Assembly: GCA_965216735.1 (NCBI GenBank)
Contig: OZ244198.1
Span: 4,725,628 to 4,789,627, forward strand
Length of the DNA stretch: 64,000 nucleotides
Reading direction: 5' to 3'
Source of the DNA: Arenicellales bacterium
GTDB taxonomy: Bacteria; Pseudomonadota; Gammaproteobacteria; Arenicellales; CBDCFT01
In this document: piece by piece, positions 5,050-51,641 of the stretch
Layout of the letters: every line of letters begins with the position of its first letter
Numbering within the stretch: the first letter of the stretch is position 1
Notes under the pieces: model-generated
Seen by the model: only the letters and a program-made list of their open reading frames with translations
What the model was told of the DNA's origin: nothing
Databases searched by the model: none
Program-made: the position numbers and the translations under genes

Positions 5050-6216
5050 GTGGACTTAAAACTCACTCAATCTGAAAGGGATTTACGACAAACAGCACAG
5101 GATTTTTGTGATCAGGTATTACTACCATATGAACTGGTGGTAGAACAAAACCAGGGTTTACCGCCAGCTTCGCGACCCGCGGTCCGCAAGCAAGTCGTCG
5201 AATGGGGATTAGCGGCAATCAATCATGAAAAGCAGCACGGCGGTCAAGGTTTGTCTATGTTTGAACAAACATTAGTGAACGAACAACTGGGCCGGGCAAC
5301 TAACGGTTTGTGGACGGCGGTGTGGCAACCGGCGATTTGTTTGAAACAGGGAACGACGGAGCAAATCGAAGATTATTTAAAACCGTGCTGTCGTGGGGAA
5401 CGACGCGGTTGTTATGCCATTACCGAGCCGCAAGCAGGGTCCGATCCACGCCGGGTGCAAACCAGTGCCGTTTTGAAAAACGGCAGGTACGTTGTTAATG
5501 GCGAGAAGTGGTTTGTGACCTCATTCAACGCCAGCGACTTTATTATTTTGCATGCCCATGTCGACGGTGATCCCGATCAACCGACCTTGTTTTTGGTCGA
5601 TCGCGCTACGCCCGGCATAAGACATATTCGCTCACCGCATTTTATGCATACCTACATTTTCGATCACGCCGAACTCGCGTTTGAGAATGCGAAGGTCGAG
5701 CCGTCTTGCATGTTAGGTGAAATCGGCCAGGGATTTGAGCTAACCAAGGATTGGTTTGTGGAAACACGCTTGCAAATCGCCGCCCATTGTATCGGAGCGG
5801 CGGCCCGCGCAGCGGAAATAGCGAATGATTACGCCAGCGAACGCGTCCAATTCGATCGTGCGATTCGCGAGTTTCAGGCCATCGAGTTCATGTTGGCCGA
5901 TATGGCAACGGAAATCATGGCGGCCAAGTCATTGGTCTACCGAATAGCGGCTGAAATCGACGACGGAATGGATCGCAAACTCGTGCATGCCCGGGCCAGT
6001 GTGGGAAAACTGCACTGCTCGGAAATGGCGGGCCGGGTTGTGGACAAGGCCTTACAAATTCTAGGGGGCCGCGGTTATATGCGTGACAACCCGGTGGAAC
6101 GTTTGTATCGCGATTTACGGGTGGACCGGATTTGGGAAGGGACTTCCGAAATTCAGCGGGCCATTATTGGGGGACAAATCAAAAAGCGAGGATTGGATAT
6201 TTTTACGGGATGGTAA
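5050..6216 (+). CDS. acyl-CoA dehydrogenase
   Basis: 388 aa. ACAD signatures: CYAITEPQAGSDP, QILGGRGY and a C-terminal IWEGTSEIQR. Confidence 0.85.
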   Translation: MDLKLTQSERDLRQTAQDFCDQVLLPYELVVEQNQGLPPASRPAVRKQVVEWGLAAINHEKQHGGQGLSMFEQTLVNEQLGRATNGLWTAVWQPAICLKQGTTEQIEDYLKPCCRGERRGCYAITEPQAGSDPRRVQTSAVLKNGRYVVNGEKWFVTSFNASDFIILHAHVDGDPDQPTLFLVDRATPGIRHIRSPHFMHTYIFDHAELAFENAKVEPSCMLGEIGQGFELTKDWFVETRLQIAAHCIGAAARAAEIANDYASERVQFDRAIREFQAIEFMLADMATEIMAAKSLVYRIAAEIDDGMDRKLVHARASVGKLHCSEMAGRVVDKALQILGGRGYMRDNPVERLYRDLRVDRIWEGTSEIQRAIIGGQIKKRGLDIFTGW

Positions 6217-33950: not shown

Positions 33951-35795
33951 ATGAAGACGTGGTACGTTGAGTTCGGGGGTCATTCGGCCGCCATTCAATA
34001 CGAAGACAATTCCGTCGCCGATCTTCTTGAATTTCTGTTCGTAGACCTTCCTGCAACTTCTGCAATTACTCCGGTAGAAACCTTTCGAATCATGGCGGAC
34101 CCGTCATGGAAACACTGTGAATTGCGTTGGAGTGATGGCCATAGCACCCGTGTGAATTCTCGTTGTGAATTGGCGCTCCAAGTCGTATCCGAAGTTCTTT
34201 TTACATTGATCAATAAATGTAGGGGAGGTCACATAATTCATGCCGCGGCCGTGCACAAAGATAACATGGGTATCTTGATGCCGGGCAAAAGCGGTGCTGG
34301 AAAATCGACTCTATGTGCATGGTTCGTAAAAAACGGCTATACATATCTGACAGACGAAGCGATTTGTTTTCCAACGGGGCAGTCGCGATTTCATTCTTTT
34401 ACACGTCCAATTCATTTTAAGCCGGGTTCTACCTCCGCTCTGAATACATTGTTGAGCGGTGAGAATATCAATGATTTATCTGAAACAGATGGTCATACGA
34501 AGATTGTTCCGCACCGTAGCTTAAATGAAAATTGGAAAAGCGCGGTTCCAGATGTGTGTTTACTGTTATTTCCGGAGTATGCAACCGACCATGACTTCAG
34601 CTTGGAACCTCTTAAACCCGCGCAAGCGAGCATGGCGCTCATGGGTGTGCATGCCAATGCCCGTAATTTAGAACACCATGGGTTTCATGAGATTACTAAC
34701 ATCGCGCGATCAACACCCGCCTTTCGATTATGCTACAGCGATTACACCCAACTCGAAAATAGACTTGATTTATTGGTAGAGCTTGTCTTGGAACGATCCG
34801 CCGATGCCACGCATTTGGTGGAATTATTCCGTTCGATGCAAACCCATCGTGTCATAGATATTCCTTCGAAACAGGAGACAACCGAAAAAGCCACCCACCC
34901 CATACCGGAGCCAACGAAATCCGGTTCCAAGAAAAAACTATGTCTAGGCATGGCTACGTATGACGACTACGACGGTGTTTACTTTTCCGTTCAAGCCATT
35001 CGTATGTTTCATCCCGAAATAACCCAAGACACCGAGATTTTGGTAATCGATAATAATCCGACAGGGGCTTGCAGTCTGGCATTGAAGAAGCTCGACGGTT
35101 CAATAAAGGGTTACCGCTATATGCCCAATGCGAATGTTCAAGGTACCGCAATCAGGGATTTGGTTTTCCAATATGCCAATGCCGACTATGTTTTGTGCAT
35201 GGACTCCCATGTGTTTCTAGAGCCCGGTGCTATCTGCAAATTCATCGATTACTTGGATCAACATCCTGACTGCATGGATTTACTACAAGGCCCCATGTTG
35301 TATGACGACCAATCTACGGTGATGACGCATTTTGAACCGCAATGGCGCCAGGGTATGTACGGTACTTGGGCGCACGACGAACGCGGACAAGACAAAGACA
35401 ACCCACCGTTTGACATTCCCATGCAAGGATTGGGTTTGTTTGGTTGTCGAAAACAGGCGTGGTTAGGATTCAACAAACACTTTCGTGGATTTGGTGGTGA
35501 AGAGGGATATATTCACGAAAAGTTTCGTCAAGCAGGGCGTCAAACCTTGTGTCTACCTTTTCTACGTTGGCTGCATCGTTTCGAACGCCCTAATGGTGTT
35601 CCCTACCGACTTAAATGGGAAGACCGCATATATAACTACTGGGTGGGATTTAGCGAATTGAGTATGGACCCGGCGCCGATGATCGAACATTTTCGTGGTC
35701 ACCTGGGCAAACAAGTGACGGATAATATCTTGGCTGATATCCAGGCGGTCTTTAAAGAAAAAGCAATATTAAAACAAAACATTCCATCAAAATGA
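33951..35795 (+). CDS. fusion protein: N-terminal HPr-kinase-like P-loop domain plus C-terminal family-2-type glycosyltransferase domain
   Basis: IIHAAAVHKDNMGILMPGKSGAGKSTLCAWFVKNGYTYLTDE is the HprK-like Walker A region (nt 34284-34310). From about aa 328, KKLCLGMATYDDYDGVYFSVQAIRM ... ILVIDNNP ... YVLCMDSHVF is a GT-A fold with a D-S-H metal motif at nt 35202-35210. Confidence 0.75.
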   Translation: MKTWYVEFGGHSAAIQYEDNSVADLLEFLFVDLPATSAITPVETFRIMADPSWKHCELRWSDGHSTRVNSRCELALQVVSEVLFTLINKCRGGHIIHAAAVHKDNMGILMPGKSGAGKSTLCAWFVKNGYTYLTDEAICFPTGQSRFHSFTRPIHFKPGSTSALNTLLSGENINDLSETDGHTKIVPHRSLNENWKSAVPDVCLLLFPEYATDHDFSLEPLKPAQASMALMGVHANARNLEHHGFHEITNIARSTPAFRLCYSDYTQLENRLDLLVELVLERSADATHLVELFRSMQTHRVIDIPSKQETTEKATHPIPEPTKSGSKKKLCLGMATYDDYDGVYFSVQAIRMFHPEITQDTEILVIDNNPTGACSLALKKLDGSIKGYRYMPNANVQGTAIRDLVFQYANADYVLCMDSHVFLEPGAICKFIDYLDQHPDCMDLLQGPMLYDDQSTVMTHFEPQWRQGMYGTWAHDERGQDKDNPPFDIPMQGLGLFGCRKQAWLGFNKHFRGFGGEEGYIHEKFRQAGRQTLCLPFLRWLHRFERPNGVPYRLKWEDRIYNYWVGFSELSMDPAPMIEHFRGHLGKQVTDNILADIQAVFKEKAILKQNIPSK

Positions 35796-36310
35796 GTATT
35801 AGACGTCTTTTCATTACCCGACTCATCGGAATGCTCAGCGCCATTCCGATCTTGGGTAACGCCTCACTGCGCGCAAATACCGCTATTGCGGATTCCCCCA
35901 GCTCGGTACAAGATCAATTCCGAATTCTCGTCGACACCTGTGTGCCTCGGGACGACTATCCGGGCGCTGTCGACGAGGGAATCGATAGAAAACTATTGAG
36001 CGAAATTTCGGCGAACCCGATTCATTTGAAACGCGTACACGATTTGCTAATTGATATTGATAAACTGTCGCGTAGTCAATTCAAACAGGTTTTTGTCGAT
36101 CTCGAGTTGTCTAATCGTACCCGTCTACTAGATAGACTATTGAATGATAAAACACTGGTTCCTGACCAACGTGCAGAATTAAGTTACCTACGTGCACGTG
36201 TACTGCAACTGTTTTATACCTCCGAATCCGGATTTGCCATGCTGGATTACCATCCACCCAGTCATGGCGGTTACCCGGACTACGCAAAACCCTTAGATCA
36301 ACTAAGCTAA
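35792..36310 (+). CDS. Tat-signal small subunit (gluconate 2-dehydrogenase subunit-3-like) partnering the GMC flavoprotein
   Basis: MSIRRLFITRLIGMLSAIPILGNASLRANTAIA is a twin-arginine signal. 172 aa. The ATGA overlap with the upstream gene implies translational coupling. It lies directly upstream of the GMC oxidoreductase. Confidence 0.6.
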   Translation: MSIRRLFITRLIGMLSAIPILGNASLRANTAIADSPSSVQDQFRILVDTCVPRDDYPGAVDEGIDRKLLSEISANPIHLKRVHDLLIDIDKLSRSQFKQVFVDLELSNRTRLLDRLLNDKTLVPDQRAELSYLRARVLQLFYTSESGFAMLDYHPPSHGGYPDYAKPLDQLS

Positions 36311-36315
36311 AGCGA

Positions 36316-37956
36316 ATGCCGCAACCTGATTACGATGCCATCGTCATCGGTGCGGGCGCGGGCGGTGGATTCGCGGCGATGGCCCTGGCCGAACGTGGTG
36401 CGAAAGTATTGTCAATCGAACGCGGCAAACGTTTCAATTACAAAACCGACTATCCCATGAACTATCCTGACTGGGAATCGCGTTTGCATCCGTTGTCCAG
36501 TGTTGTGGAAACGTTTCAGCCTGTCGCTACACCGGAAATAGCCAAAACCGATAGCGACATTTGTTCCCGAATCACCGGGTCCCCATCACCACACGCACCT
36601 GGACGACGCGGACAGTTTCAGTATTTACGTTCTATCGGCGTGGGCGGATCCACCTTGCACTATCAAGGGGAAGCACACCGCTTTCCAAGCCACGCTTTTA
36701 GGTCGAAAACCCTATTTGGTTGGGGTGAAGACTGGCCCTTGTTCTATACCGAGTTGGAACCGTACTACGACCAGGTGGAAAAAATCCTGGGCGTCGCCGG
36801 GAATCCGGGTAATCCTTTTAAGGATAAACGTGGAGCATTTCCAACCCCTACCCACTCGTTATCCACCAAAAGCCAGCTCGTCGAGTTTGGCACAAAAAAA
36901 TTGGGTTGGTCGTTACTGCCGAATACGTTGGCGTTGCCCAGCCGCTCTATCGACAACCGTATGCCGTGTCAACATTCCGGCGGTTGTGTTCAAGGTTGTA
37001 TTTTCGGTGCCAAATCCAGTGTCGATCAAACCGCCATCGTGCATGGCGAAAAAACCGGAAACCTGACCGTGTTACCCGAAGCGCGGGTGGTGCAACTGGA
37101 GACGAATAAGAAAGGGGGTGTGACCGGTGTTGTGCTGGTACACAATAAAAAACGTCGACGCATTAGTGCACACAAGTACTTCCTTGCCTTGGGTGCGATT
37201 GAAACGCCTCGTTTGTTGTTGGCCAGTGCATCGAGCTCCCATCCGAATGGTATTGGCAATGCGCACGATCAGGTAGGTCGTTATCTTATGGAAACCATCA
37301 TAGCCAGCATGGAAATATTGGTCGAACAACCGGTGCATGCATACAAAGGCCCGCCCATCGACGCACGTATCTGGGATTTCAATTACCCATCAAAAGATTC
37401 CCGTGTGCGTTCGGGCTATGTATTGGGAGTGTCTGGCACATCGGCAGGCCCCCACGGACCGGTGTCTTACGCGAATAGTGTCCAGGGATTGGGTTTAGAA
37501 CACAAACGGAAGGTGCGTGACATCTTTGGCCGCAATGTCCAACTGTTCGGCATCGCGGAACACATGCCCCACTACGATAATCGATTAAGGCTAGGTGACA
37601 AGAAAGACGCCGATGGCGTGCCACTGGTAACCGTATTCAGCGACTACTCATTCGATGATCGCGAAACACTACGCGAAATGATCAATAAAATCGATACCTT
37701 GGCAGATGCTTGTGGTTTTTTAAACAAAGTGCGTTTGCATTCGAGCTACGACTCTCCATCTTCCACCCATGTCGCCGGCACCTGCCGTATGGGCAGTGAT
37801 CCGGAAAAAGCAGTAACCGATGAGTTGGGCAAAGTGTTTGGCGTCGGCAATCTTTACATTACCGACGCCAGCGTCTTACCGAGTCAGGGAGCGGGCGATT
37901 CCCCGTCCCTGACTATTCAAGCCTTGGCGTTACGAACAGTTCGAATGTTGTCGTGA
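36316..37956 (+). CDS. GMC-family FAD oxidoreductase (no signal peptide of its own)
   Basis: YDAIVIGAGAGGGFAAMALAERGAKV FAD motif. C-terminal GTCRMGSDPEKAVTDELGKVFGVGNLYITDASVLP GMC signature. Confidence 0.85.
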   Translation: MPQPDYDAIVIGAGAGGGFAAMALAERGAKVLSIERGKRFNYKTDYPMNYPDWESRLHPLSSVVETFQPVATPEIAKTDSDICSRITGSPSPHAPGRRGQFQYLRSIGVGGSTLHYQGEAHRFPSHAFRSKTLFGWGEDWPLFYTELEPYYDQVEKILGVAGNPGNPFKDKRGAFPTPTHSLSTKSQLVEFGTKKLGWSLLPNTLALPSRSIDNRMPCQHSGGCVQGCIFGAKSSVDQTAIVHGEKTGNLTVLPEARVVQLETNKKGGVTGVVLVHNKKRRRISAHKYFLALGAIETPRLLLASASSSHPNGIGNAHDQVGRYLMETIIASMEILVEQPVHAYKGPPIDARIWDFNYPSKDSRVRSGYVLGVSGTSAGPHGPVSYANSVQGLGLEHKRKVRDIFGRNVQLFGIAEHMPHYDNRLRLGDKKDADGVPLVTVFSDYSFDDRETLREMINKIDTLADACGFLNKVRLHSSYDSPSSTHVAGTCRMGSDPEKAVTDELGKVFGVGNLYITDASVLPSQGAGDSPSLTIQALALRTVRMLS

Positions 37957-43900: not shown

Positions 43901-46900
43901 TTAACCGATAATCTTAGATAGTTTTATCGTCCAGTATTCATTGCCCAATTTACGTTCGACCGCAAACTGTGCATCGAGAAAATCACCCTCGATCCATTCT
44001 GTCGCGAGTGTCTCCGACATAATAAACTCGCGGTATGTAGCAATGGCTTGTTCGACTTTAGAACTACCCGTGACTTGCAATCGAATTCGATCTGATACGA
44101 TTAAATCAGCCTGCTTTCTCGCATCTTGTACAGTGCGCACCACCTCTCGAGCGAGACCTTCAAGCAATAATTCTTCGTTGAGAGTGATATCCAAACCAAC
44201 AAGAAAACCTTGCTCTTCGGCGCAAGCGAAACCTTCCGCAGATTCGGTTTCCACCAGCACATCCTCGGCTTCGAATTCAATCGATTGTTCATCCACGTGT
44301 AATGTAAATGACTCACCTTTCGCGCACGCATTGGCAATAACACCGCCATCGGCATCGATTAGCGCTTGTTTAATCTTGGGAACCAGTTTTCCGTATTGTT
44401 TGCCGATACGTGGTAAATTGGGCTTAAGCCGGTAAGTCACCAGCTCCGCATCCCGTGCGGCAAACTCGATTTCCTTTACGTTTAATTCCTCGAGAATTTG
44501 CTGATCGTGATTCTTTACAGCTTTCCCAGCCTCTTCATTCGGTACACGAATCAAGAGTTTGGATAAGGGCTGGCGGATACGAACTTTGCTGGCTTCACGT
44601 GCAGAGCGACCCAAACCCACAACACGTTGCACAACGTCCACTTCGTATAGCAGTGCATCGTCGATGTACTGGTCGTTAACAGTTGGCCATTCGGTCATGT
44701 GTACACTCGATAATGCCTCGGCAGTGCTTGAACGCACCAGATTTTGGTACACCGCTTCGCTCAGGAACGGCATGAACGGCGCCATCAGCCGATGCACGAC
44801 GTCGATACATTCATGCAATGTCAGATACGCTGATTGCTTGTCGTCCCCCGCCTCAGCTTTCCAGAAACGGCGCCGGTTGCGTCGAATGTACCAATTGCTG
44901 AGTTGATCGACAAAAGATTCAATTGCTTCGCCGGCGCCTTTGGCGTCATAGTTGTCTATAGCTTTTGTCACGTCGCGAACAGTTCTACTCAGCAAGGCCA
45001 ACGCCCACCGATCGATCTCTGGACGTTGCTCGAACGGAATCGTTTTGTTTAGATCTACATCGTCTAGCCGCGCGTACAAAACAAAAAACGCGTAGGTGTT
45101 CCAGAATGTGTTGACAAATGAGCTGGCAACCTCGGCAATAATGTCCACCGAGATACGTTTTTGCGCTTCCGGTGCAAGCCGCGCTAGAAAATACCAACGC
45201 AGCGCATCGGCGCCGATGGTGTCAAATACGTCGTACGGGTTGACGATATTACCAATGGATTTGGACATTTTCTTACCGTCTTTGTCCACGATGTGTGACA
45301 GGCAAACACAGTTGCGATAGGCCACGCTATCGGATACCAGCGTGGCAATCGCGTGCAAGGTGTAAAACCAGCCACGGGTTTGATCGATGGCTTCGCAGAT
45401 GTAGTCCGCAGGAAAATGCCTTTCGAAGGTTTCGGCGTTCTCAAAAGGGTAATGCCATTGGGCATACGACATGGCGCCGGAATCGAACCAGCAATCGATT
45501 ACTTCGGGAACGCGACGGTATTCCTTACCGTCTTTGTTAAATGTAATCTCATCAATGGCCGGGCGATGTAAATCGATGTCACTCAGACTCCGACCGCTCA
45601 ATTCTTCAAGTTCGGCCAAAGAGCCGATACAAATAAAATCGCCTTCACCATCCGTCCAAACGGGCAACGGCGTGCCCCAAAATCGCTCCCGTGAAAGTGC
45701 CCAGTCGATATTGTTTTCTAACCAGTTACCAAACCGTCCGTCGCGTATGGTTTCCGGTACCCAATTAATGGTCTTATTCAACTCAACCATGCGCCGGGCC
45801 ACTTGGGTGGTGCGGATATACCAGGCGTTCTTGGCGTAGTAGATTAATGGATCACCAGTGCGCCATCCATGTGGGTAGTTGTGCAAATAACTCTCCTCGC
45901 GGAACAATAAACCACGTTCTTTAAGTGAAGCGATGAGTGCCGGATCTGCCTCCTTGAAAAACTTGCCCGCTACCGGCTCGACTTCAGGCAAAAAATATCC
46001 ATCCAGTCCGACGCCGTGTACCACCGGCAAATGGTATTTCTGCCCAAGTGCCAAATCGTCTACACCGTAGGCGGGTGCGATGTGGACAATGCCGGTGCCG
46101 TCTTCAGTGCTGACAAAATCACCGCTCACAACTTGGAATGCATTTTCTTTATTGTCCACGGTCAGATAATCAAACAAGCGTTGATAGCGTTTGCCAAGTA
46201 AGTCACGTCCCTTGACCGTTTTAACAACGGATTGCTCTTGTTCGCCAAAAATGGCTTCGCGCCGTGCTTCGGCGACAATCAACGTTTCGCCATCGCATTG
46301 CACATACGCATACTCTATATCGTCGCCAACCGCAGCCAACAGGTTCGACGGTAATGTCCAGGGTGTGGTAGTCCAGACCAATAACGACACATTCGGTTCG
46401 TCGCACAAACGAAAGCGTACCAAAACCGATGGATCACTTACCTCTTTATAGCCCTGGGCCACTTCGTGTGAGGACAATGTTGCACCGATACGTGGATCGT
46501 AGGGTACAACTTTGTAACCCTGATAGATTAGATCCTTGTCCCAGATATTCTTTAACAGATTCCACACCGACTCGATGTAGTCGTTATTCAGGGTGTAATA
46601 AGCTTCGTCCATGTTCACCCAGAAACCCATGCGTTCGGTCATTTTTTCCCAATCACCGATATAACGCATGACCGATTCACGGCATCGCTTGGTGAATTCC
46701 GCTATGCCGATTTTCGCTTCAATTTCTTTTTTATCGAAGATGCCGAGTTCTTTTTCGATTTCGTGTTCCACCGGCAAACCGTGTGTATCCCAACCCGCTT
46801 TTCGCGGACAATGAAATCCGCGCATGGTTTTGTAGCGTGGGTAAATATCCTTAAACGTTCGCGCTAGCACGTGATGAATGCCGGGTTTACCGTTGGCCGT

Positions 46901-47062
46901 CGGCGGACCTTCATTAAAGGTAAATAGAGGGCGGCCCTCGGATTGCTCAAGACTTTTTTTAAACAATTTATGCTCGCGCCAGAACTCGAGAATCTCTTGT
47001 TCCAGCTTTGGACCATTGTAGCGGCTGGGTACTTCTTTAAAAGTCTTGTCGTTAGAAACCAT
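43901..47062 (-). CDS. ileS: isoleucine--tRNA ligase, type 2 (eukaryote/Bacteroidetes/Thermus-like)
   Basis: FNEGPPTANGKPGIHHVLARTFKDIYPRYKTMRGF (the type-2 form of the HIGH region) and KMSKSIGN. About 1053 aa from ATG 47062. The in-frame upstream extension to 47191 runs through the leader RNA and is rejected. Confidence 0.9.
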   Translation of the reverse strand: MVSNDKTFKEVPSRYNGPKLEQEILEFWREHKLFKKSLEQSEGRPLFTFNEGPPTANGKPGIHHVLARTFKDIYPRYKTMRGFHCPRKAGWDTHGLPVEHEIEKELGIFDKKEIEAKIGIAEFTKRCRESVMRYIGDWEKMTERMGFWVNMDEAYYTLNNDYIESVWNLLKNIWDKDLIYQGYKVVPYDPRIGATLSSHEVAQGYKEVSDPSVLVRFRLCDEPNVSLLVWTTTPWTLPSNLLAAVGDDIEYAYVQCDGETLIVAEARREAIFGEQEQSVVKTVKGRDLLGKRYQRLFDYLTVDNKENAFQVVSGDFVSTEDGTGIVHIAPAYGVDDLALGQKYHLPVVHGVGLDGYFLPEVEPVAGKFFKEADPALIASLKERGLLFREESYLHNYPHGWRTGDPLIYYAKNAWYIRTTQVARRMVELNKTINWVPETIRDGRFGNWLENNIDWALSRERFWGTPLPVWTDGEGDFICIGSLAELEELSGRSLSDIDLHRPAIDEITFNKDGKEYRRVPEVIDCWFDSGAMSYAQWHYPFENAETFERHFPADYICEAIDQTRGWFYTLHAIATLVSDSVAYRNCVCLSHIVDKDGKKMSKSIGNIVNPYDVFDTIGADALRWYFLARLAPEAQKRISVDIIAEVASSFVNTFWNTYAFFVLYARLDDVDLNKTIPFEQRPEIDRWALALLSRTVRDVTKAIDNYDAKGAGEAIESFVDQLSNWYIRRNRRRFWKAEAGDDKQSAYLTLHECIDVVHRLMAPFMPFLSEAVYQNLVRSSTAEALSSVHMTEWPTVNDQYIDDALLYEVDVVQRVVGLGRSAREASKVRIRQPLSKLLIRVPNEEAGKAVKNHDQQILEELNVKEIEFAARDAELVTYRLKPNLPRIGKQYGKLVPKIKQALIDADGGVIANACAKGESFTLHVDEQSIEFEAEDVLVETESAEGFACAEEQGFLVGLDITLNEELLLEGLAREVVRTVQDARKQADLIVSDRIRLQVTGSSKVEQAIATYREFIMSETLATEWIEGDFLDAQFAVERKLGNEYWTIKLSKIIG

Positions 47063-47350
47063 ATGTTGTTCTCCAAAACAAAAACGCCCCGGGGCTTGCA
47101 TTGCTGCAATGCCCCGGGGCGATGGGTATTCTGTCGCTGTACCACCCGGTTTCGCTACGCCCTCGCGGGCGATAGCCTCAACAAGTAACAACCGTTACTC
47201 AAGCCCTGTCTCGGGGGCCAGTCGTCTGAGTCTACTCGGTTCGCTGGCATCCTAACGAGAAAACCAGCGGCATACCTTTCGGTCAGCGGCTCCAGGGTGA
47301 TTTTCGGCGGGGTCCGGGTCGGGGCTCTCACTCTCTCCCGATCGCTGATT
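47063..47350 (-). promoter_or_regulatory. T-box riboswitch leader (Ile specifier) controlling ileS
   Basis: Read on the minus strand: AGCGAUCGGGAGAGAGU (Stem I 5' side), GAAAAUCA (AUC at 47299-47301 followed by A), a GNRA-capped Stem III CGCCC-GCGA-GGGCG, the T-box core GGGUGGUACAGCG (47135-47147, 12/13 to GGGUGGUACCGCG), then the terminator. Confidence 0.7.
47075..47121 (-). terminator. intrinsic terminator of the T-box leader, ending 13 nt before the ileS start region
   Basis: Minus strand CGCCCCGGGGCAUUGCA-GCAA-UGCAAGCCCCGGGGCG followed by UUUUUGUUUUGG, then GAGAACAACAUAUG. Confidence 0.8.
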
Positions 47351-47538
47351 CCGGCTTGGTCCGGCTACTCGTCCCTTTCAAAGCCTTGGTGTTAGCGATT
47401 AGAAATCTAACCCGCTCCCCGTTAAAACGCAAGTCAACTTCCCACGGATATTCACATTTGTCTAACAGCCTTAAACAAGGAGTTGACACCAGCTCATTAT
47501 CGCGCGAAAACACATACCGTTTATTCTGGTGTGGACGT

Positions 47539-48294
47539 ATGAAAATGAAAAAATCTTATTCCGTTGTTTCGCAAAGCATGCTTGGTTCGTTTTTGCTATT
47601 GGCTATGCCGGGGTTAGTAGCCGCAGGTGAAAGAACTTCAGTGGTTGAATTGTTTACCTCTCAAGGTTGCTACTCTTGTCCCGCCGCGGATGATTATCTG
47701 GCCCATCTCATCGACAATCGCAAAGACGTGATTGCTTTGGAGTACCATGTCGATTACTGGGACACGCTGGTCTGGGGGTCGGACGGCAGTTGGAAGGATC
47801 CATTTTCCAGTCCCGAATACACCCAACGTCAGCGTGGTTACCACGCCGCTGACCTAAAGGGTCGGCGTGGTGTTTATACACCACAGATGGTGGTGGATGG
47901 GCGTTTCGCTGCGGTGGGTTCGGATCGAAGAGCCGTACAAAAGGCGCTGTCTGATAGAAACGAATCTTTTTTAGAAGTTGACATTGAAGCGATAGCAAGC
48001 GGATATTCTATTGCAGTGGATGGCCAGGCACAGAATTCGGCGGACGTATGGCTGGTGACTTTTGATCGCAAAAAAACCACCGCCATACCGCGTGGAGAAA
48101 ACGCGGGCAAAACCTTAGACAATTATCACATTGTGAAACGTCTTGAACGCATAGGCGATTGGAGTGGCGTTGCCACGACTATTAAAGCGGAGGTTTCTTT
48201 GGCAGAAGGCGAAGGTTGTGCAGTGTTGATTCAATCCGTGAGTTACGATACGCCGGGGCCGGTCCTTGGCGCATCGTATTGTCCGGATACCTGA
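47539..48294 (+). CDS. DUF1223 family secreted thioredoxin-like protein
   Basis: MKMKKSYSVVSQSMLGSFLLLAMPGLVAA signal. VVELFTSQGCYSCPAADDYL ... ALEYHVDYWD is the DUF1223 signature. The ORF-track N-terminal extension to 47356 overlaps the T-box region and is rejected. Confidence 0.75.
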   Translation: MKMKKSYSVVSQSMLGSFLLLAMPGLVAAGERTSVVELFTSQGCYSCPAADDYLAHLIDNRKDVIALEYHVDYWDTLVWGSDGSWKDPFSSPEYTQRQRGYHAADLKGRRGVYTPQMVVDGRFAAVGSDRRAVQKALSDRNESFLEVDIEAIASGYSIAVDGQAQNSADVWLVTFDRKKTTAIPRGENAGKTLDNYHIVKRLERIGDWSGVATTIKAEVSLAEGEGCAVLIQSVSYDTPGPVLGASYCPDT

Positions 48295-48426: not shown

Positions 48427-49932
48427 TTGCCAAGAACCAGTAATCCTAACGTGACCGGTCGCTTTGCAAGGAGTTTTATAAAAAGAATATTGTCGCGTTT
48501 GGGTGTGAGTGTAAAGCGATCGCCTGGCCAATTCGAACTGTTAATTGAAAGTAACTCTGCCAGGCAGTTGTCGATCGTTGAGTCAGAAAAATTCGCGCCC
48601 TGTTCCGGGGTTTCAACGCTCTCGCGAATCAACCTGGACAAACAAGGTGGATCCCTTGCCACGCTGGGAACAAAAAAAGCGATCGACATAACATTATCCG
48701 GCGAATCAATCGCAGTTGTTGAAACGGGTAGCTGGTGCTGGCCTGCCCACTTGCAGAACGGCGTGCGTACTGCGCGTGTTTCACACCCAACGGAAGGACG
48801 GGAACGGCGGGTGATAGTTGATTTTCGCAGTAGGGCAGAAAAACACTTTGCCAATCTATTCGTCGATTCAATCGGTCAGGCAATAATGGCAATTTTTTTG
48901 ATGGGAAAGGAAAATGGCAAGGCGTTTGCAAAGGGCTGGGTTTACGATCCACATCGGCAACCCGGCGCAGACGGATTTCGATTGAATAATCAAACAGCCG
49001 ACATTGTGTTGACCACATCACAACCCGGTTGGGAAACACATCTCGGACCCGTGTTTTCGTATTTCAGTATGAAGGGAGAAGAACATTTTACTTTTTTCGA
49101 TGCTAAGGTTACGGCAAAAGGGTCGGCTATTGAACCGGTAGTAGTCGAATACAATAGCACGCCGGAAGGCCTGTTTGACCGTTGCCGTTTCGGCTATGTC
49201 GAGGATAACCTGCCAATGCCCCGGGGTGAAACGTTTAAACGCGTATCGGGAAACCCTAATCCGTTTACCTTTCGACTGTCAGGCTATTCCGCTTCTTTGG
49301 TCTTACGCGATATCGTTCGACATTATCTCGACAAATCTGTAGCGGAGTTAAGTCGTGTACTCGATTGGGGTTGCGGGTGCGGGCGGGTGTCCCGTCATTT
49401 CCGTGACGATGCTGGGAGAACTCATTGGTGTGGTGCGGACATCGATGAGATAGGCGTTCAATGGGCACAGGAAAATCTGCCTTTTGGTCATTTCCATCAT
49501 ATAAAGCCGTTGGAAAAAACGCCTTATCCGGATAATCACTTCGAACTTATTTTTGGAATTTCGGTATTTACCCATTTACGCGAAGCAGATCATTTATTCT
49601 GGTTGCAGGAACTCGCCCGTATTTTGGCTCCCGCTGGAATTGTGGCGGTGAGTATCGCTGGAAAGACGTTGCGAGCGCGGTTGTTTACAACAGACATCAA
49701 CGAACTCACCAACGACCTCATCGCGGGATACACCGATCATGGCCGCAGCGACGCCATCGATGGAAGCACGAGCGATATTGAGTATTACCGCAGCACGTTT
49801 ATATCAGAAGACTATGTTAGGACAGTGTGGAGCCGCTACTTCGATGTCCTGGATATTCATCCGGGGCTAATCGGATGCCGACAGGATTTGGTCGTCATGG
49901 GCAAGAAACCTGCGCACCAAGATTGCGATTAA
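48427..49932 (+). CDS. class I SAM-dependent methyltransferase with a long uncharacterised N-terminal region
   Basis: VLDWGCGCGRVSRHF (motif I) and ELIFGISVFTHL in the C-terminal third. The start is uncertain. Confidence 0.6.
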   Translation: MPRTSNPNVTGRFARSFIKRILSRLGVSVKRSPGQFELLIESNSARQLSIVESEKFAPCSGVSTLSRINLDKQGGSLATLGTKKAIDITLSGESIAVVETGSWCWPAHLQNGVRTARVSHPTEGRERRVIVDFRSRAEKHFANLFVDSIGQAIMAIFLMGKENGKAFAKGWVYDPHRQPGADGFRLNNQTADIVLTTSQPGWETHLGPVFSYFSMKGEEHFTFFDAKVTAKGSAIEPVVVEYNSTPEGLFDRCRFGYVEDNLPMPRGETFKRVSGNPNPFTFRLSGYSASLVLRDIVRHYLDKSVAELSRVLDWGCGCGRVSRHFRDDAGRTHWCGADIDEIGVQWAQENLPFGHFHHIKPLEKTPYPDNHFELIFGISVFTHLREADHLFWLQELARILAPAGIVAVSIAGKTLRARLFTTDINELTNDLIAGYTDHGRSDAIDGSTSDIEYYRSTFISEDYVRTVWSRYFDVLDIHPGLIGCRQDLVVMGKKPAHQDCD

Positions 49933-51641
49933 CGAATAAAACCCAAACTTTCCAGCTTGATAATAATACGGTGCGCAGCCAGATCAGGGGTTAAATCTTT
50001 TGTGTCGATCACCATTTCAGCGTTCTCCGGAACTTCGTATGGATCGCTGATACCGGTGAATTCTGGAATGATACCTGCGCGCGCACGGGCATACAGACCT
50101 TTGCGGTCACGGGCCTCACATTCTTCCAATGATGTCGACACATATACTTCTATAAATCCACCGGCGGCTTCCACCATGGCGCGGACTTTGCGGCGGGTGG
50201 ACTTATACGGCGCAATAGGGGCGCAGATCGCGATACCACCGTTTTTGGTAATTTCGCTGGCAACAAAGCCTATACGTTGAATATTCAAATCACGATGCTC
50301 ACGGGAAAAACCCAATTCACTGGACAAATTCTTTCGGACAATATCACCATCCAATAGCGTCACCCGGCGTCCGCCTTGCTCCATGAGTTTTACCATCAAG
50401 GCATTAGCGATTGTTGATTTACCCGCACCGGACAGACCAGTAAAAAATACAGTGAGGCCTTGCCGATGGCGTGGTGGAATGGTCTTGCGCAATTCTTCCA
50501 CCACCGCTGGATAGGAAAACCAATCGTCAATCTTGAGTCCCTCGCGCAAGCGGCGGCGAAACTCGGCACTGGTAATCTCAAGGGTGCGTTCGTTTCCCCT
50601 GACTTCATCTTCGGGTAAATATTGCGCTCGATTGACGACGTAAACCATGTGTTTGAACGCGACGGGTGTTACATCGAGCTCTTCTTGGTGTTCTTGGAGC
50701 AATTTCTGTGCTGCGTAGGGAGAATAAAACGCTTCTCCGCTCCCATCTTTACCCGACCCCGCGTGGTCATGCCCGACGATAAAATGTGTACAACCGTAAT
50801 TTTTGCGAATAATGGCATGCCATAAAGCTTCACGTGGCCCCGCCATACGCATCGCCAACGGTAGCAGACTCAGTGCGGTGGTTTGTTCGGGGTACTCACG
50901 CAGCAAACGCTCGTAGCAGCGCACTCTGGCAAAACGGTCTATATCACCCGGTATGGTGGATCCCACCACCGGATGTATCAGTAGGTTGGCTTCGCTTTCA
51001 CGCACCGCTCTTATAGTTAGTTCTTGGTGAGCGCGATGCATGGGGTTACGGGTCTGGAATGCCACTACGCGCCGCCACCCTAGCTTTTCAAAATAATCGC
51101 GTAGTTCTTGGGGTGAATAACGCAAATGACGAAAGTCATAGTGATGAGGCGCTTCGACACCGTGCAACTTCCCTGCGAGATAAACCGGATGAGTGTTGTT
51201 AAACAAATAATCGACACCGGGGTGATCACTGTCAGTTGAATCGTAGACCTGGCTGGCTTCGCGTTGTTTGTCTGCTTGCCATTGCTCCTCCACATCCATG
51301 ACAGCGATCAGTACGCCTTCACTGTCGCGCAGCGCGATACGGCTAGCTGTCTCCAGTGATTGTGCAAAATCTTCGCTGACATCGAGGTTAATGGGCACAG
51401 GCCACAACATGCCATTACTTAACCGCATATCCTGTAATACGGATTCGTAATCGGTTTTGCCGAGAAAACCCTCTAGGGGAGAAAAGGCCCCGTTTAGTAA
51501 CAGTTCAAGATCGCACAATTGCCGTTCGTTTAAATCCCACGACGGATAATCACGCGCTTTTTGTTTCTCCTGCTCGGCTTCAGTGGGGCCCAAATACAGG
51601 TTTTTGAGTACACCACCGTGGGGTTGTTTAAATGCGCCCAT
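49929..51641 (-). CDS. sat/cysC: bifunctional sulfate adenylyltransferase (ATP sulfurylase) / adenylylsulfate kinase
   Basis: QTRNPMHRAHQEL and HFIVGHDHAG are sulfurylase motifs. C-terminal FFTGLSGAGKSTIANAL ... DGDIVR is the APS-kinase P-loop. 570 aa. Confidence 0.9.
   Translation of the reverse strand: MGAFKQPHGGVLKNLYLGPTEAEQEKQKARDYPSWDLNERQLCDLELLLNGAFSPLEGFLGKTDYESVLQDMRLSNGMLWPVPINLDVSEDFAQSLETASRIALRDSEGVLIAVMDVEEQWQADKQREASQVYDSTDSDHPGVDYLFNNTHPVYLAGKLHGVEAPHHYDFRHLRYSPQELRDYFEKLGWRRVVAFQTRNPMHRAHQELTIRAVRESEANLLIHPVVGSTIPGDIDRFARVRCYERLLREYPEQTTALSLLPLAMRMAGPREALWHAIIRKNYGCTHFIVGHDHAGSGKDGSGEAFYSPYAAQKLLQEHQEELDVTPVAFKHMVYVVNRAQYLPEDEVRGNERTLEITSAEFRRRLREGLKIDDWFSYPAVVEELRKTIPPRHRQGLTVFFTGLSGAGKSTIANALMVKLMEQGGRRVTLLDGDIVRKNLSSELGFSREHRDLNIQRIGFVASEITKNGGIAICAPIAPYKSTRRKVRAMVEAAGGFIEVYVSTSLEECEARDRKGLYARARAGIIPEFTGISDPYEVPENAEMVIDTKDLTPDLAAHRIIIKLESLGFIR

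Follow-up and report, generated by a model that had tools for sequence, protein, structure and literature searches.

T-box riboswitches are regarded as characteristic of Bacillota, with further occurrences in Actinomycetota, Chloroflexota and Deinococcus-Thermus. Among the cases described beyond Bacillota, T-boxes preceding ileS have been reported for Dehalococcoides, within the Chloroflexota, and the leuA T-boxes of the deltaproteobacteria Geobacter and Pelobacter, known from two genomes, are the only Proteobacteria cases in the literature covered (PMC2494555). A survey from 2025 described T-boxes as restricted to Bacillota (PMC12452182), and Proteobacteria go unmentioned in the TBDB preprint. 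No report of a T-box in Gammaproteobacteria or in Woeseia was found in the open-access literature; silent database annotations may exist, because the literature search covered open-access sources only and some of the leaders described below pass the Rfam cut-off. Here, we analyze a 64-kb stretch of DNA (hereafter the window; contig OZ244198.1, positions 4,725,628 to 4,789,627) from an Arenicellales bacterium, a Woeseiaceae-related gammaproteobacterium, in which a leader with T-box features precedes ileS on the minus strand. We propose, with a probability of about 0.85, that this leader is a class I (i.e., transcriptional) T-box riboswitch for tRNA-Ile, predicted to control ileS2, the gene of a type 2 isoleucyl-tRNA synthetase (IleRS2). 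The mechanism is well known; what is unexpected is the clade-wide gammaproteobacterial host range of the T-box, since sequence comparison indicates that Woeseiaceae, Arenicellales and related lineages have stably kept a canonical terminator-type element. All leader features given below lie on the minus strand and are numbered by window position.

The Rfam T-box model (RF00230) aligns over its positions 1-219 to 47390-47112, with a score of 61 bits and E-values of 9.4e-13 in a 701-nt region and 8.6e-11 when the 64-kb window was compared against all 4227 Rfam families, being the sole RNA-family match with E < 0.01 in the window. An earlier note on this DNA had read an Ile-specific T-box in front of ileS and proposed precisely this search; the match is significant and full-length, although below the gathering score, and the proposal is sustained by this independent covariance model together with the conserved AUC codon, the TIGR00392 gene and the mutually exclusive antiterminator and terminator described below. 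The strings quoted in that note were all located on the minus strand at the positions assigned to them. The element does occupy the span that the note delimited (47063-47350), but its true start lies at approximately 47385-47390, the base of the kink-turn (K-turn) and the 5' half of Stem I having been omitted.

The gathering score of RF00230 in Rfam 15 is 93 bits, and a scan of the window at default gathering cut-offs reported no match, a silence explained by the high T-box cut-off and not by absence of the element. This cut-off was passed by 4 of 16 orthologous gammaproteobacterial leaders (L016, 115.8 bits; L082, 99.5 bits; L002, 99.4 bits; and L014, 98.8 bits; handles of this type designate the loci compared), as well as by two Clostridia loci (L058 and L073, with 123.5 and 117 bits, respectively). 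The accepted Chloroflexota ileS T-boxes of L020 and L059 fall below 93 bits too, and therefore the Rfam 15 threshold under-calls T-boxes from outside Bacillota. The score of the window copy is attributable to the bias of RF00230 towards Bacillota and to insertions in Stem II, rather than to non-membership. In terms of annotation, most of these gammaproteobacterial leaders escape the Rfam 15 cut-off. A chance resemblance, or another kind of leader (for instance, one in which translation of an Ile-rich peptide drives ribosome-mediated attenuation), would fit with a match below the gathering score; however, an E-value of about 1e-12 from an independent model and the orthologous leaders that do pass the cut-off make this explanation extremely improbable. 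Regarding the peptide itself, an Ile-rich leader peptide was considered and rejected, as all three leader frames are broken by stops and hold no run of Ile codons.

A full-length Stem I (47288-47385) was delineated from the Rfam alignment and from covariation. Its basal helix (G47385-C47288, G47384-C47289 and C47383-G47290) leads into a K-turn (UUUGAAA / GGA), a helix above it (47376-47373 with 47297-47294) and the specifier loop, displaying ACGAGUA on its 5' side and GAAA-AUC-A on its 3' side. Beyond this loop are found two middle helices (47365-47361 with 47310-47306, and 47354-47351 with 47317-47314), the AG bulge AAUCAGCGA (47350-47342), and a distal helix (47341-47337 with 47323-47319) closed by a distal loop of 11 nt (47335-47325). 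The specifier codon, AUC (Ile; 47299-47301), stands in the context GAA-A-AUC-A, and the motif GAA.AUCA is invariant in 15/15 aligned gammaproteobacterial leaders; GAA-N-AUC-A is present in all gammaproteobacterial leaders, and AUC also in those of Chloroflexota. The motifs AGCGA and GUG..AG are likewise invariant in the Stem I alignment.

This alignment comprised the window and 14 gammaproteobacterial loci, on which a five-helix structure of 22 pairs was imposed. Across the 15 leaders, 92.4% of the cells are paired and 19 of the 22 pairs have changed on both sides; as controls, sliding the partner by 1-3 columns reduced pairing to 35-54%, and none of 500 shuffles (0/500) reached any of the five measures used. 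When 49 leaders were considered, all pairs covaried (22/22). The AUC at 47301-47299 and the A that follows it are as the earlier note had described them. Its assignment of CAGCGAUCGGGAGAGAGU (47347-47330) as the start of Stem I had to be revised, as this string corresponds to the AG bulge, distal helix and distal loop, the true start being located about 40 nt upstream of the coordinates proposed; likewise, the reduced, actinobacterial-type Stem I suggested there gives way to a full-length one, with K-turn, internal specifier loop, AG bulge and distal loop.

Downstream, the T-box sequence AACCGGGUGGUACAGCG (47151-47135) and the antiterminator, which together span 47114-47151, were aligned by Rfam with high posterior probability and adopt the canonical bulged fold, constituted by a lower helix CCGGG/CCCGG, a 7-nt bulge UGGUACA with its UGGU at 47144-47141, and an upper helix GCGA/UCGC. 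The predicted energy of this helix-bulge-helix arrangement (47149-47114) is -10.0 kcal/mol for the 36-nt core and -11.6 kcal/mol in a 49-nt context. An intrinsic terminator follows (47075-47121), consisting of a 37-nt hairpin (47121-47085) and the U-run UUUUUGUUUU (47084-47075); the bare hairpin folds at -33.8 kcal/mol, and a 63-nt segment around it at -36.7 kcal/mol (z = -6). Positions 47121-47114 serve in both folds, as the final eight bases of the antiterminator and as the 5' start of the terminator, the two being mutually exclusive. In 15/15 gammaproteobacterial leaders, a bulged antiterminator of -9 to -17 kcal/mol is opposed by a much stronger terminator of -20 to -61 kcal/mol, with a U-run behind it. 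Thus, the UGGU core and the strong terminator with its U-run were correctly placed by the earlier note, and the folding of both alternatives, which it had advised, returned -10.0 versus -33.8 kcal/mol with 47121-47114 as the shared segment.

The Shine-Dalgarno (SD) sequence GGAG (47071-47074), read from the sequence 8 nt 5' of the AUG, is not sequestered; it is located past the terminator, and therefore the platform is transcriptional and not SD-sequestering. These features bear on a further possibility, namely a translational T-box of actinobacterial type, in which a short Stem I would present the specifier in its terminal loop and tRNA binding would free a sequestered SD. The distal Stem I is indeed hard to fold by eye, and ileS is the typical target of that class; even so, a Stem I of full length, with its K-turn, internal specifier loop, AG bulge and distal loop, and a platform made of a hairpin plus U-run, with the GGAG beyond the terminator and unpaired in the fold, leave this possibility with almost no probability.

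According to the class I model, transcription would start about 15-25 nt upstream of Stem I, which would then dock tRNA-Ile(GAU), with the AUC pairing to the anticodon and the AG-bulge/distal-loop platform stacking on the tRNA elbow. With uncharged tRNA, pairing between its free 3' ACCA end and the UGGU of the bulge would stabilize an otherwise weak antiterminator (about -10 to -12 kcal/mol), and RNA polymerase would enter ileS. With charged tRNA, the -34 kcal/mol terminator would form from the same CGCCCCGG segment, and transcription would stop at the U-run. As a net result, isoleucyl-tRNA synthetase (IleRS) would be autoregulated by the tRNA-Ile charging ratio. Bacterial tRNA-Ile carries the discriminator A73, which is assumed for the organism of the window.

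Several observations weigh against this interpretation. At 61 bits, the window leader falls under the RF00230 gathering score of 93. Its Stem I carries a C.C mismatch (47364/47307) that is absent from the closest relative, L081, and its core, GGGUGGUACAGCG, displays an A at 47138, the last bulge position, where ...ACCGCG was read in 20/20 relatives (17 of them gammaproteobacterial); the core is invariant in 14/14 other aligned gammaproteobacterial leaders, and this deviant base had not been flagged by the earlier note. In addition, tRNA scans of the window and of 20 loci found no tRNA gene to supply the anticodon and discriminator. A simple scan of 46950-47650 for sigma-70 promoters and terminators found no element, the terminator being missed because its stem is bulged and falls outside the rules of the scan. 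Furthermore, terminator-type riboswitches are uncommon in Pseudomonadota, amounting to only about 10% of the riboswitches there (PMC12452182).

Both base deviations are private to the lineage of the window, L081 displaying ...UACCGCG and a perfect helix, and they could be taken as signs of a decaying relic, in which A47138 and the C.C mismatch would weaken tRNA sensing, and ileS would be expressed via leaky termination or another promoter. Consistent with this, each deviation is unique to the window among the 15 aligned leaders and in comparison to L081, and its Rfam score is the lowest of the leaders scored. We nevertheless regard decay as improbable, given that all helices, the AUC, the UGGU and the full terminator are intact, that single mismatches in Stem I helices are found in other members too, and that a terminator of -34 kcal/mol before an essential gene would not be tolerable without working antitermination.

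Regarding its distribution, 24 gammaproteobacterial loci could be tested (from Woeseiaceae, Arenicellales and others), and in 21 of them the same leader precedes the orthologous ileS. A scan of GTDB, with one genome per species and 80 loci taken, recovered IleRS at 65-75% identity only from gammaproteobacterial metagenome-assembled genomes (MAGs), corresponding to Woeseiaceae, Chromatiales bacterium, Arenicellales, Acidiferrobacteraceae and unclassified members; beyond these, identity was about 50% or less (Chloroflexota and other phyla), and the homologues outside the clade include those of Chloroflexota, Clostridia, Actinomycetota and other phyla. In the protein database, the 119 closest clusters of non-identical IleRS all share 71-85% identity with the window enzyme, and the named clusters are labelled Woeseia sp., Woeseiaceae, Arenicellales, Gammaproteobacteria, Proteobacteria or 'marine bacterium B5-7', and the relatives that carry a label are mostly MAGs from marine or sediment samples.

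The T-box core GGGUGGUACCGCG is located 76-143 nt 5' of ileS in most gammaproteobacterial and many Chloroflexota loci. A covariance model of Stem I, built from the 15-leader alignment (window plus 14 loci), identified exactly one site in the window; among the 80 loci, 48 have a single such site ahead of ileS (14 gammaproteobacterial, about 28 Chloroflexota, five Clostridia and one Actinomycetota), and these together with the window make up the 49 leaders mentioned above. Seven loci outside the training set scored 94-104 bits, among them L081, the Woeseia sp. MAGs L082-L084, and L085 and L086, the latter two being circular chromosomes of 5.85 and 4.71 Mb.

No synteny was found by tblastn of the window neighbors against the 80 GTDB loci; it was seen only with the closer relative L081, whose IleRS is 84% identical and which shares with the window the gene order MatE, Sat/CysC, methyltransferase, divergent DUF1223, leader, ileS and NTP_transf_5. 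The leaders of both are collinear and 84% identical, with compensatory changes in an extra hairpin (A-U to G-C) and in Stem III (C-G to U-A), and with a paired one-base deletion in the terminator, one per arm. Across Woeseiaceae, the order DsbA-...-leader-ileS-small ORF-murI (ORF, open reading frame) is recurrent. Since its transfer into the clade, discussed below, inheritance of the system therefore looks vertical, judging from this conserved gene context.

At three gammaproteobacterial loci (L015, L008 and L012) the leader was not found. In L015:553-6109 the order is murJ-ribF-ileS2 without T-box, with the type 2 IleRS in the slot that ileS1 classically occupies in Proteobacteria; this arrangement suggests that ileS1 was replaced in situ and the leader lost. 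L009 and L012 share flanks, with a small membrane protein and a rhomboid upstream and a NAD-dependent epimerase downstream; the T-box is present in L009 only, and the intergenic region upstream of ileS measures 208 nt in L012 versus about 420 nt in L009. The third locus, L008, belongs to an Acidiferrobacteraceae MAG and displays at 5732-5814 an SAH riboswitch (RF01057; 48.4 bits, above gathering) 5' of an adenosylhomocysteinase-like ORF. As a different arrangement, an Arenicellales MAG (L016:2049-6129) harbors the Ile T-box of 115.8 bits followed by a glutathione-S-transferase-like ORF and then ileS, i.e., a two-gene T-box operon.

The regulated gene, ileS (43901-47062, minus strand), encodes a type 2 IleRS of 1053 aa, identified with TIGR00392 and Pfam models. 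Its product reaches 966 bits with TIGR00392 (cut-off 621), and the next-best models are MupA (853 bits) and MupB (814 bits), both far below their own cut-offs; therefore the enzyme is not MupA or MupB itself. The Pfam domains PF00133, PF08264 and PF19302 (the DUF5915 C-terminal domain) were recognized, and the combination of TIGR00392, Mup-type next-best models and DUF5915 identifies it as a type 2, 'eukaryote-like' IleRS. IleRS1 is the usual enzyme in Proteobacteria, while IleRS2 is found mainly in Firmicutes, Actinobacteria, Chlamydiae, Spirochaetes and Deinococcales, horizontal gene transfer having been invoked for a few alphaproteobacteria (PMC4861432).

The public call of this gene (P0125, 100% identical) is 1096 aa long and starts at a TTG at 47191, thereby spanning Stem III, the antiterminator and the terminator. 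Relatives have an IleRS of 1043-1053 aa, and a GGAG stands 8 nt ahead of the ATG at 47062. The longer call is likely a start-codon misannotation that hides the riboswitch (47062-47191).

The enzyme type and the position of its gene bear on whether the T-box would govern the only IleRS of the cell. We propose that IleRS2 is probably the sole IleRS of this genome. Under a different view, which keeps the same T-box, ileS2 would be an inducible, inhibitor-insensitive backup to a housekeeping ileS1 located elsewhere; a natural, mupirocin-like or thiomarinol-like inhibitor of IleRS1 would cause uncharged tRNA-Ile to accumulate, and the T-box would then activate the type 2 enzyme, constituting an RNA-based inducible antibiotic resistance. 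Three observations are in agreement with it: the closest models to this IleRS after the generic ileS model are those of MupA and MupB; Priestia megaterium has, alongside ileS1, an ileS2 that is preceded by a T-box and induced by mupirocin (bioRxiv 10.1101/2022.02.09.479832); and the window ileS is found outside the usual ribF-ileS-lspA slot. Conversely, bacteria mostly have ileS1 or ileS2 as their sole gene (bioRxiv 10.1101/2022.02.09.479832), no ileS1 was seen within the 64-kb window, and the ileS2 of L015 lies directly after murJ-ribF, the normal ileS1 position, which points to replacement and not to addition. We thus consider both the backup role and its resistance function unlikely, albeit less so than a decaying relic; if true, an inducible circuit for antibiotic resistance would be widespread in Woeseiaceae-like gammaproteobacteria. 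When ileS and its leader were compared with plasmids by megablast, no match was obtained, and there is thus no sign of a plasmid-borne cassette.

In order to place the enzyme, a neighbor-joining tree of 79 IleRS sequences was built with 60 bootstraps, leaving out IleRS1. The gammaproteobacterial IleRS2 form one clade in 60/60 bootstraps, and the window groups with L001 and L002 in 58/60. The sister group of this clade is unstable, being an Ignavibacteria/Bacteroidota-type group in 26-30 replicates and a Chloroflexota-containing one in about 25. Among the 80 loci, no T-box was detected with the Stem I model at the FCB-group homologues, whereas IleRS2 homologues of Chloroflexota, Clostridia and Actinomycetota carry Ile T-boxes, and therefore a T-box-using donor is favored. 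From these comparisons, an ancestor of this gammaproteobacterial clade probably took up ileS2 along with its leader, the source being a lineage that uses T-boxes. Chloroflexota were rejected as a named donor, the sister group flipping between bootstraps; ranking donors by Stem I score was uninformative, the best non-gammaproteobacterial match being a Clostridia locus. The joint horizontal transfer of ileS and leader put forward in the earlier note is hence supported in outline by the type 2 enzyme, the 60/60 clade and the T-boxes on the IleRS2 genes of other phyla, although the event was ancient and is shared by a large clade, and is not a recent one in this genome; the ileS phylogeny that the note recommended yields a solid gammaproteobacterial clade with an unstable sister group.

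Between Stem I and the T-box sequence, Stem II (47226-47286), assigned by sequence comparison and RNAalifold, is predicted with a base helix CUGA/UCAG, a CCGAA...AGUAGA internal loop and an apical hairpin CGCUGG/CCAGCG, the latter being a lineage-specific insertion. It is followed by the Stem IIA hairpin GCCC-CCGAGACA-GGGC (47203-47218), recognized by its conserved loop motif and predicted with covariation; its loop is F-box-like (CCGAnAC; CCGAGAC in the window), and CGA(G/U/A)AC is kept across leaders. Because of insertions, the Rfam alignment of the Stem II/IIA region of the window is unreliable, the Stem II and IIA motifs being visible in all leaders. The extra hairpin mentioned above, AGUAAC-GGUU-GUUACU (47184-47199), lies between Stems IIA and III and is indicated by the compensatory A-U to G-C change relative to L081; it is optional in the clade, present in 4 of the 6 leaders used for RNAalifold and missing in L004 and L007. 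Stem III, GCUA(U)CGCCC-GCGA-GGGCGUAGC (47154-47176), is capped by the GNRA loop that the earlier note had described (47176-47154), and changes from C-G to U-A with respect to L081; in 17/17 leaders, a hairpin is found at this position 5' of the T-box sequence, the hairpin sequences being unrelated. From the six gammaproteobacterial leaders, RNAalifold recovered Stems II, IIA and III as well as the optional hairpin; of the 24 pairs predicted, 13 had changed on both sides.

Upstream of Stem I, a putative promoter (47404-47432) may be constituted by TTGCGT (47432-47427) and TAGATT (47409-47404), separated by a 17-nt spacer. It matches only 7/12 consensus positions, and similar hexamers, again 17 nt apart, are seen in L081 and the Woeseiaceae leaders; as the hexamers are weak, it is retained as a candidate. 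A mechanically called ORF on the plus strand (47356-48294) overlaps Stem I; according to the alignment with L081, the divergent DUF1223 gene starts at the ATG at 47545 (249 aa), and therefore a 482-nt intergenic region is available for promoter and leader.

The proteobacterial host assumed in the earlier note was corroborated independently of ileS: the Sat/CysC protein of the window (49929-51641) is 88% identical to that of a 'Gammaproteobacteria bacterium' MAG, with further relatives in Woeseiaceae, Gammaproteobacteria and Pseudomonadota MAGs at 71-73%. Other window genes match enterobacterial-type models (e.g., a YadH-like permease, 412 bits), and the NCBI taxonomy places Woeseiaceae and Arenicellales within Gammaproteobacteria. 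Elsewhere in the window, the segment 14000-30000 has a GC content of 0.44-0.46 versus about 0.50 in the remainder and harbors several sensor histidine kinase genes; it may represent an acquired or fast-evolving segment. At 33951-37956, a member of the HprK-related kinase A family (TIGR04352, with a score below the cut-off) adjoins a GMC-type oxidoreductase, and the same oxidoreductase is kept downstream in L081.

Taken together, the stable maintenance of the leader in this clade implies that a T-box can work with proteobacterial RNA polymerase and tRNA. If the joint acquisition proposed above is correct, a regulatory RNA can cross phyla along with an essential gene and then persist, and these organisms would offer a natural system for the study of T-box kinetics in a Gram-negative background.

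The closest described systems are the class I T-boxes of Bacillota (e.g., Bacillus subtilis tyrS and Staphylococcus aureus ileS; RF00230), with which the window leader shares the domain order, from Stem I through the competing antiterminator and terminator, and a specifier cognate to the regulated aminoacyl-tRNA synthetase gene. It departs from them in its gammaproteobacterial host, in the extra apical hairpin of Stem II and the extra hairpin before Stem III, and in a Stem IIA loop reading CCGAGAC instead of the usual CCGUUA of the F-box; in addition, the window copy ends its bulge with an A in place of the C and scores below the Rfam gathering threshold. The ileS T-boxes of Chloroflexota, which we observed in Anaerolineae, Herpetosiphon, Ktedonobacter and Thermoflexus loci, share the IleRS2 gene type, the AUC specifier, the AGCGA bulge and the terminator-type platform. 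Their IleRS are among the nearest non-gammaproteobacterial relatives, with about 50% identity, yet are not resolved as sister in the tree; many Anaerolineae leaders have C or U after the codon, in contrast to the A in the window, and the best non-gammaproteobacterial Stem I scores correspond to a Clostridia and an Actinomycetota locus, not to Chloroflexota.

The translational ileS T-boxes of actinobacteria (e.g., Nocardia and Mycobacterium) also precede an IleRS2-type ileS and sense tRNA-Ile; however, that class displays a truncated Stem I whose terminal loop holds the specifier, together with a helix that sequesters the SD, whereas the window displays a complete Stem I and an intrinsic terminator. 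Finally, a precedent for T-boxes that occur sporadically in Proteobacteria sensu lato, presumably through horizontal acquisition, is provided by the leuA T-boxes of Geobacter and Pelobacter. They differ in belonging to a class now assigned to Desulfobacterota, in their Leu specificity and in their biosynthetic target, while the type found in the window is spread over a large and abundant clade.

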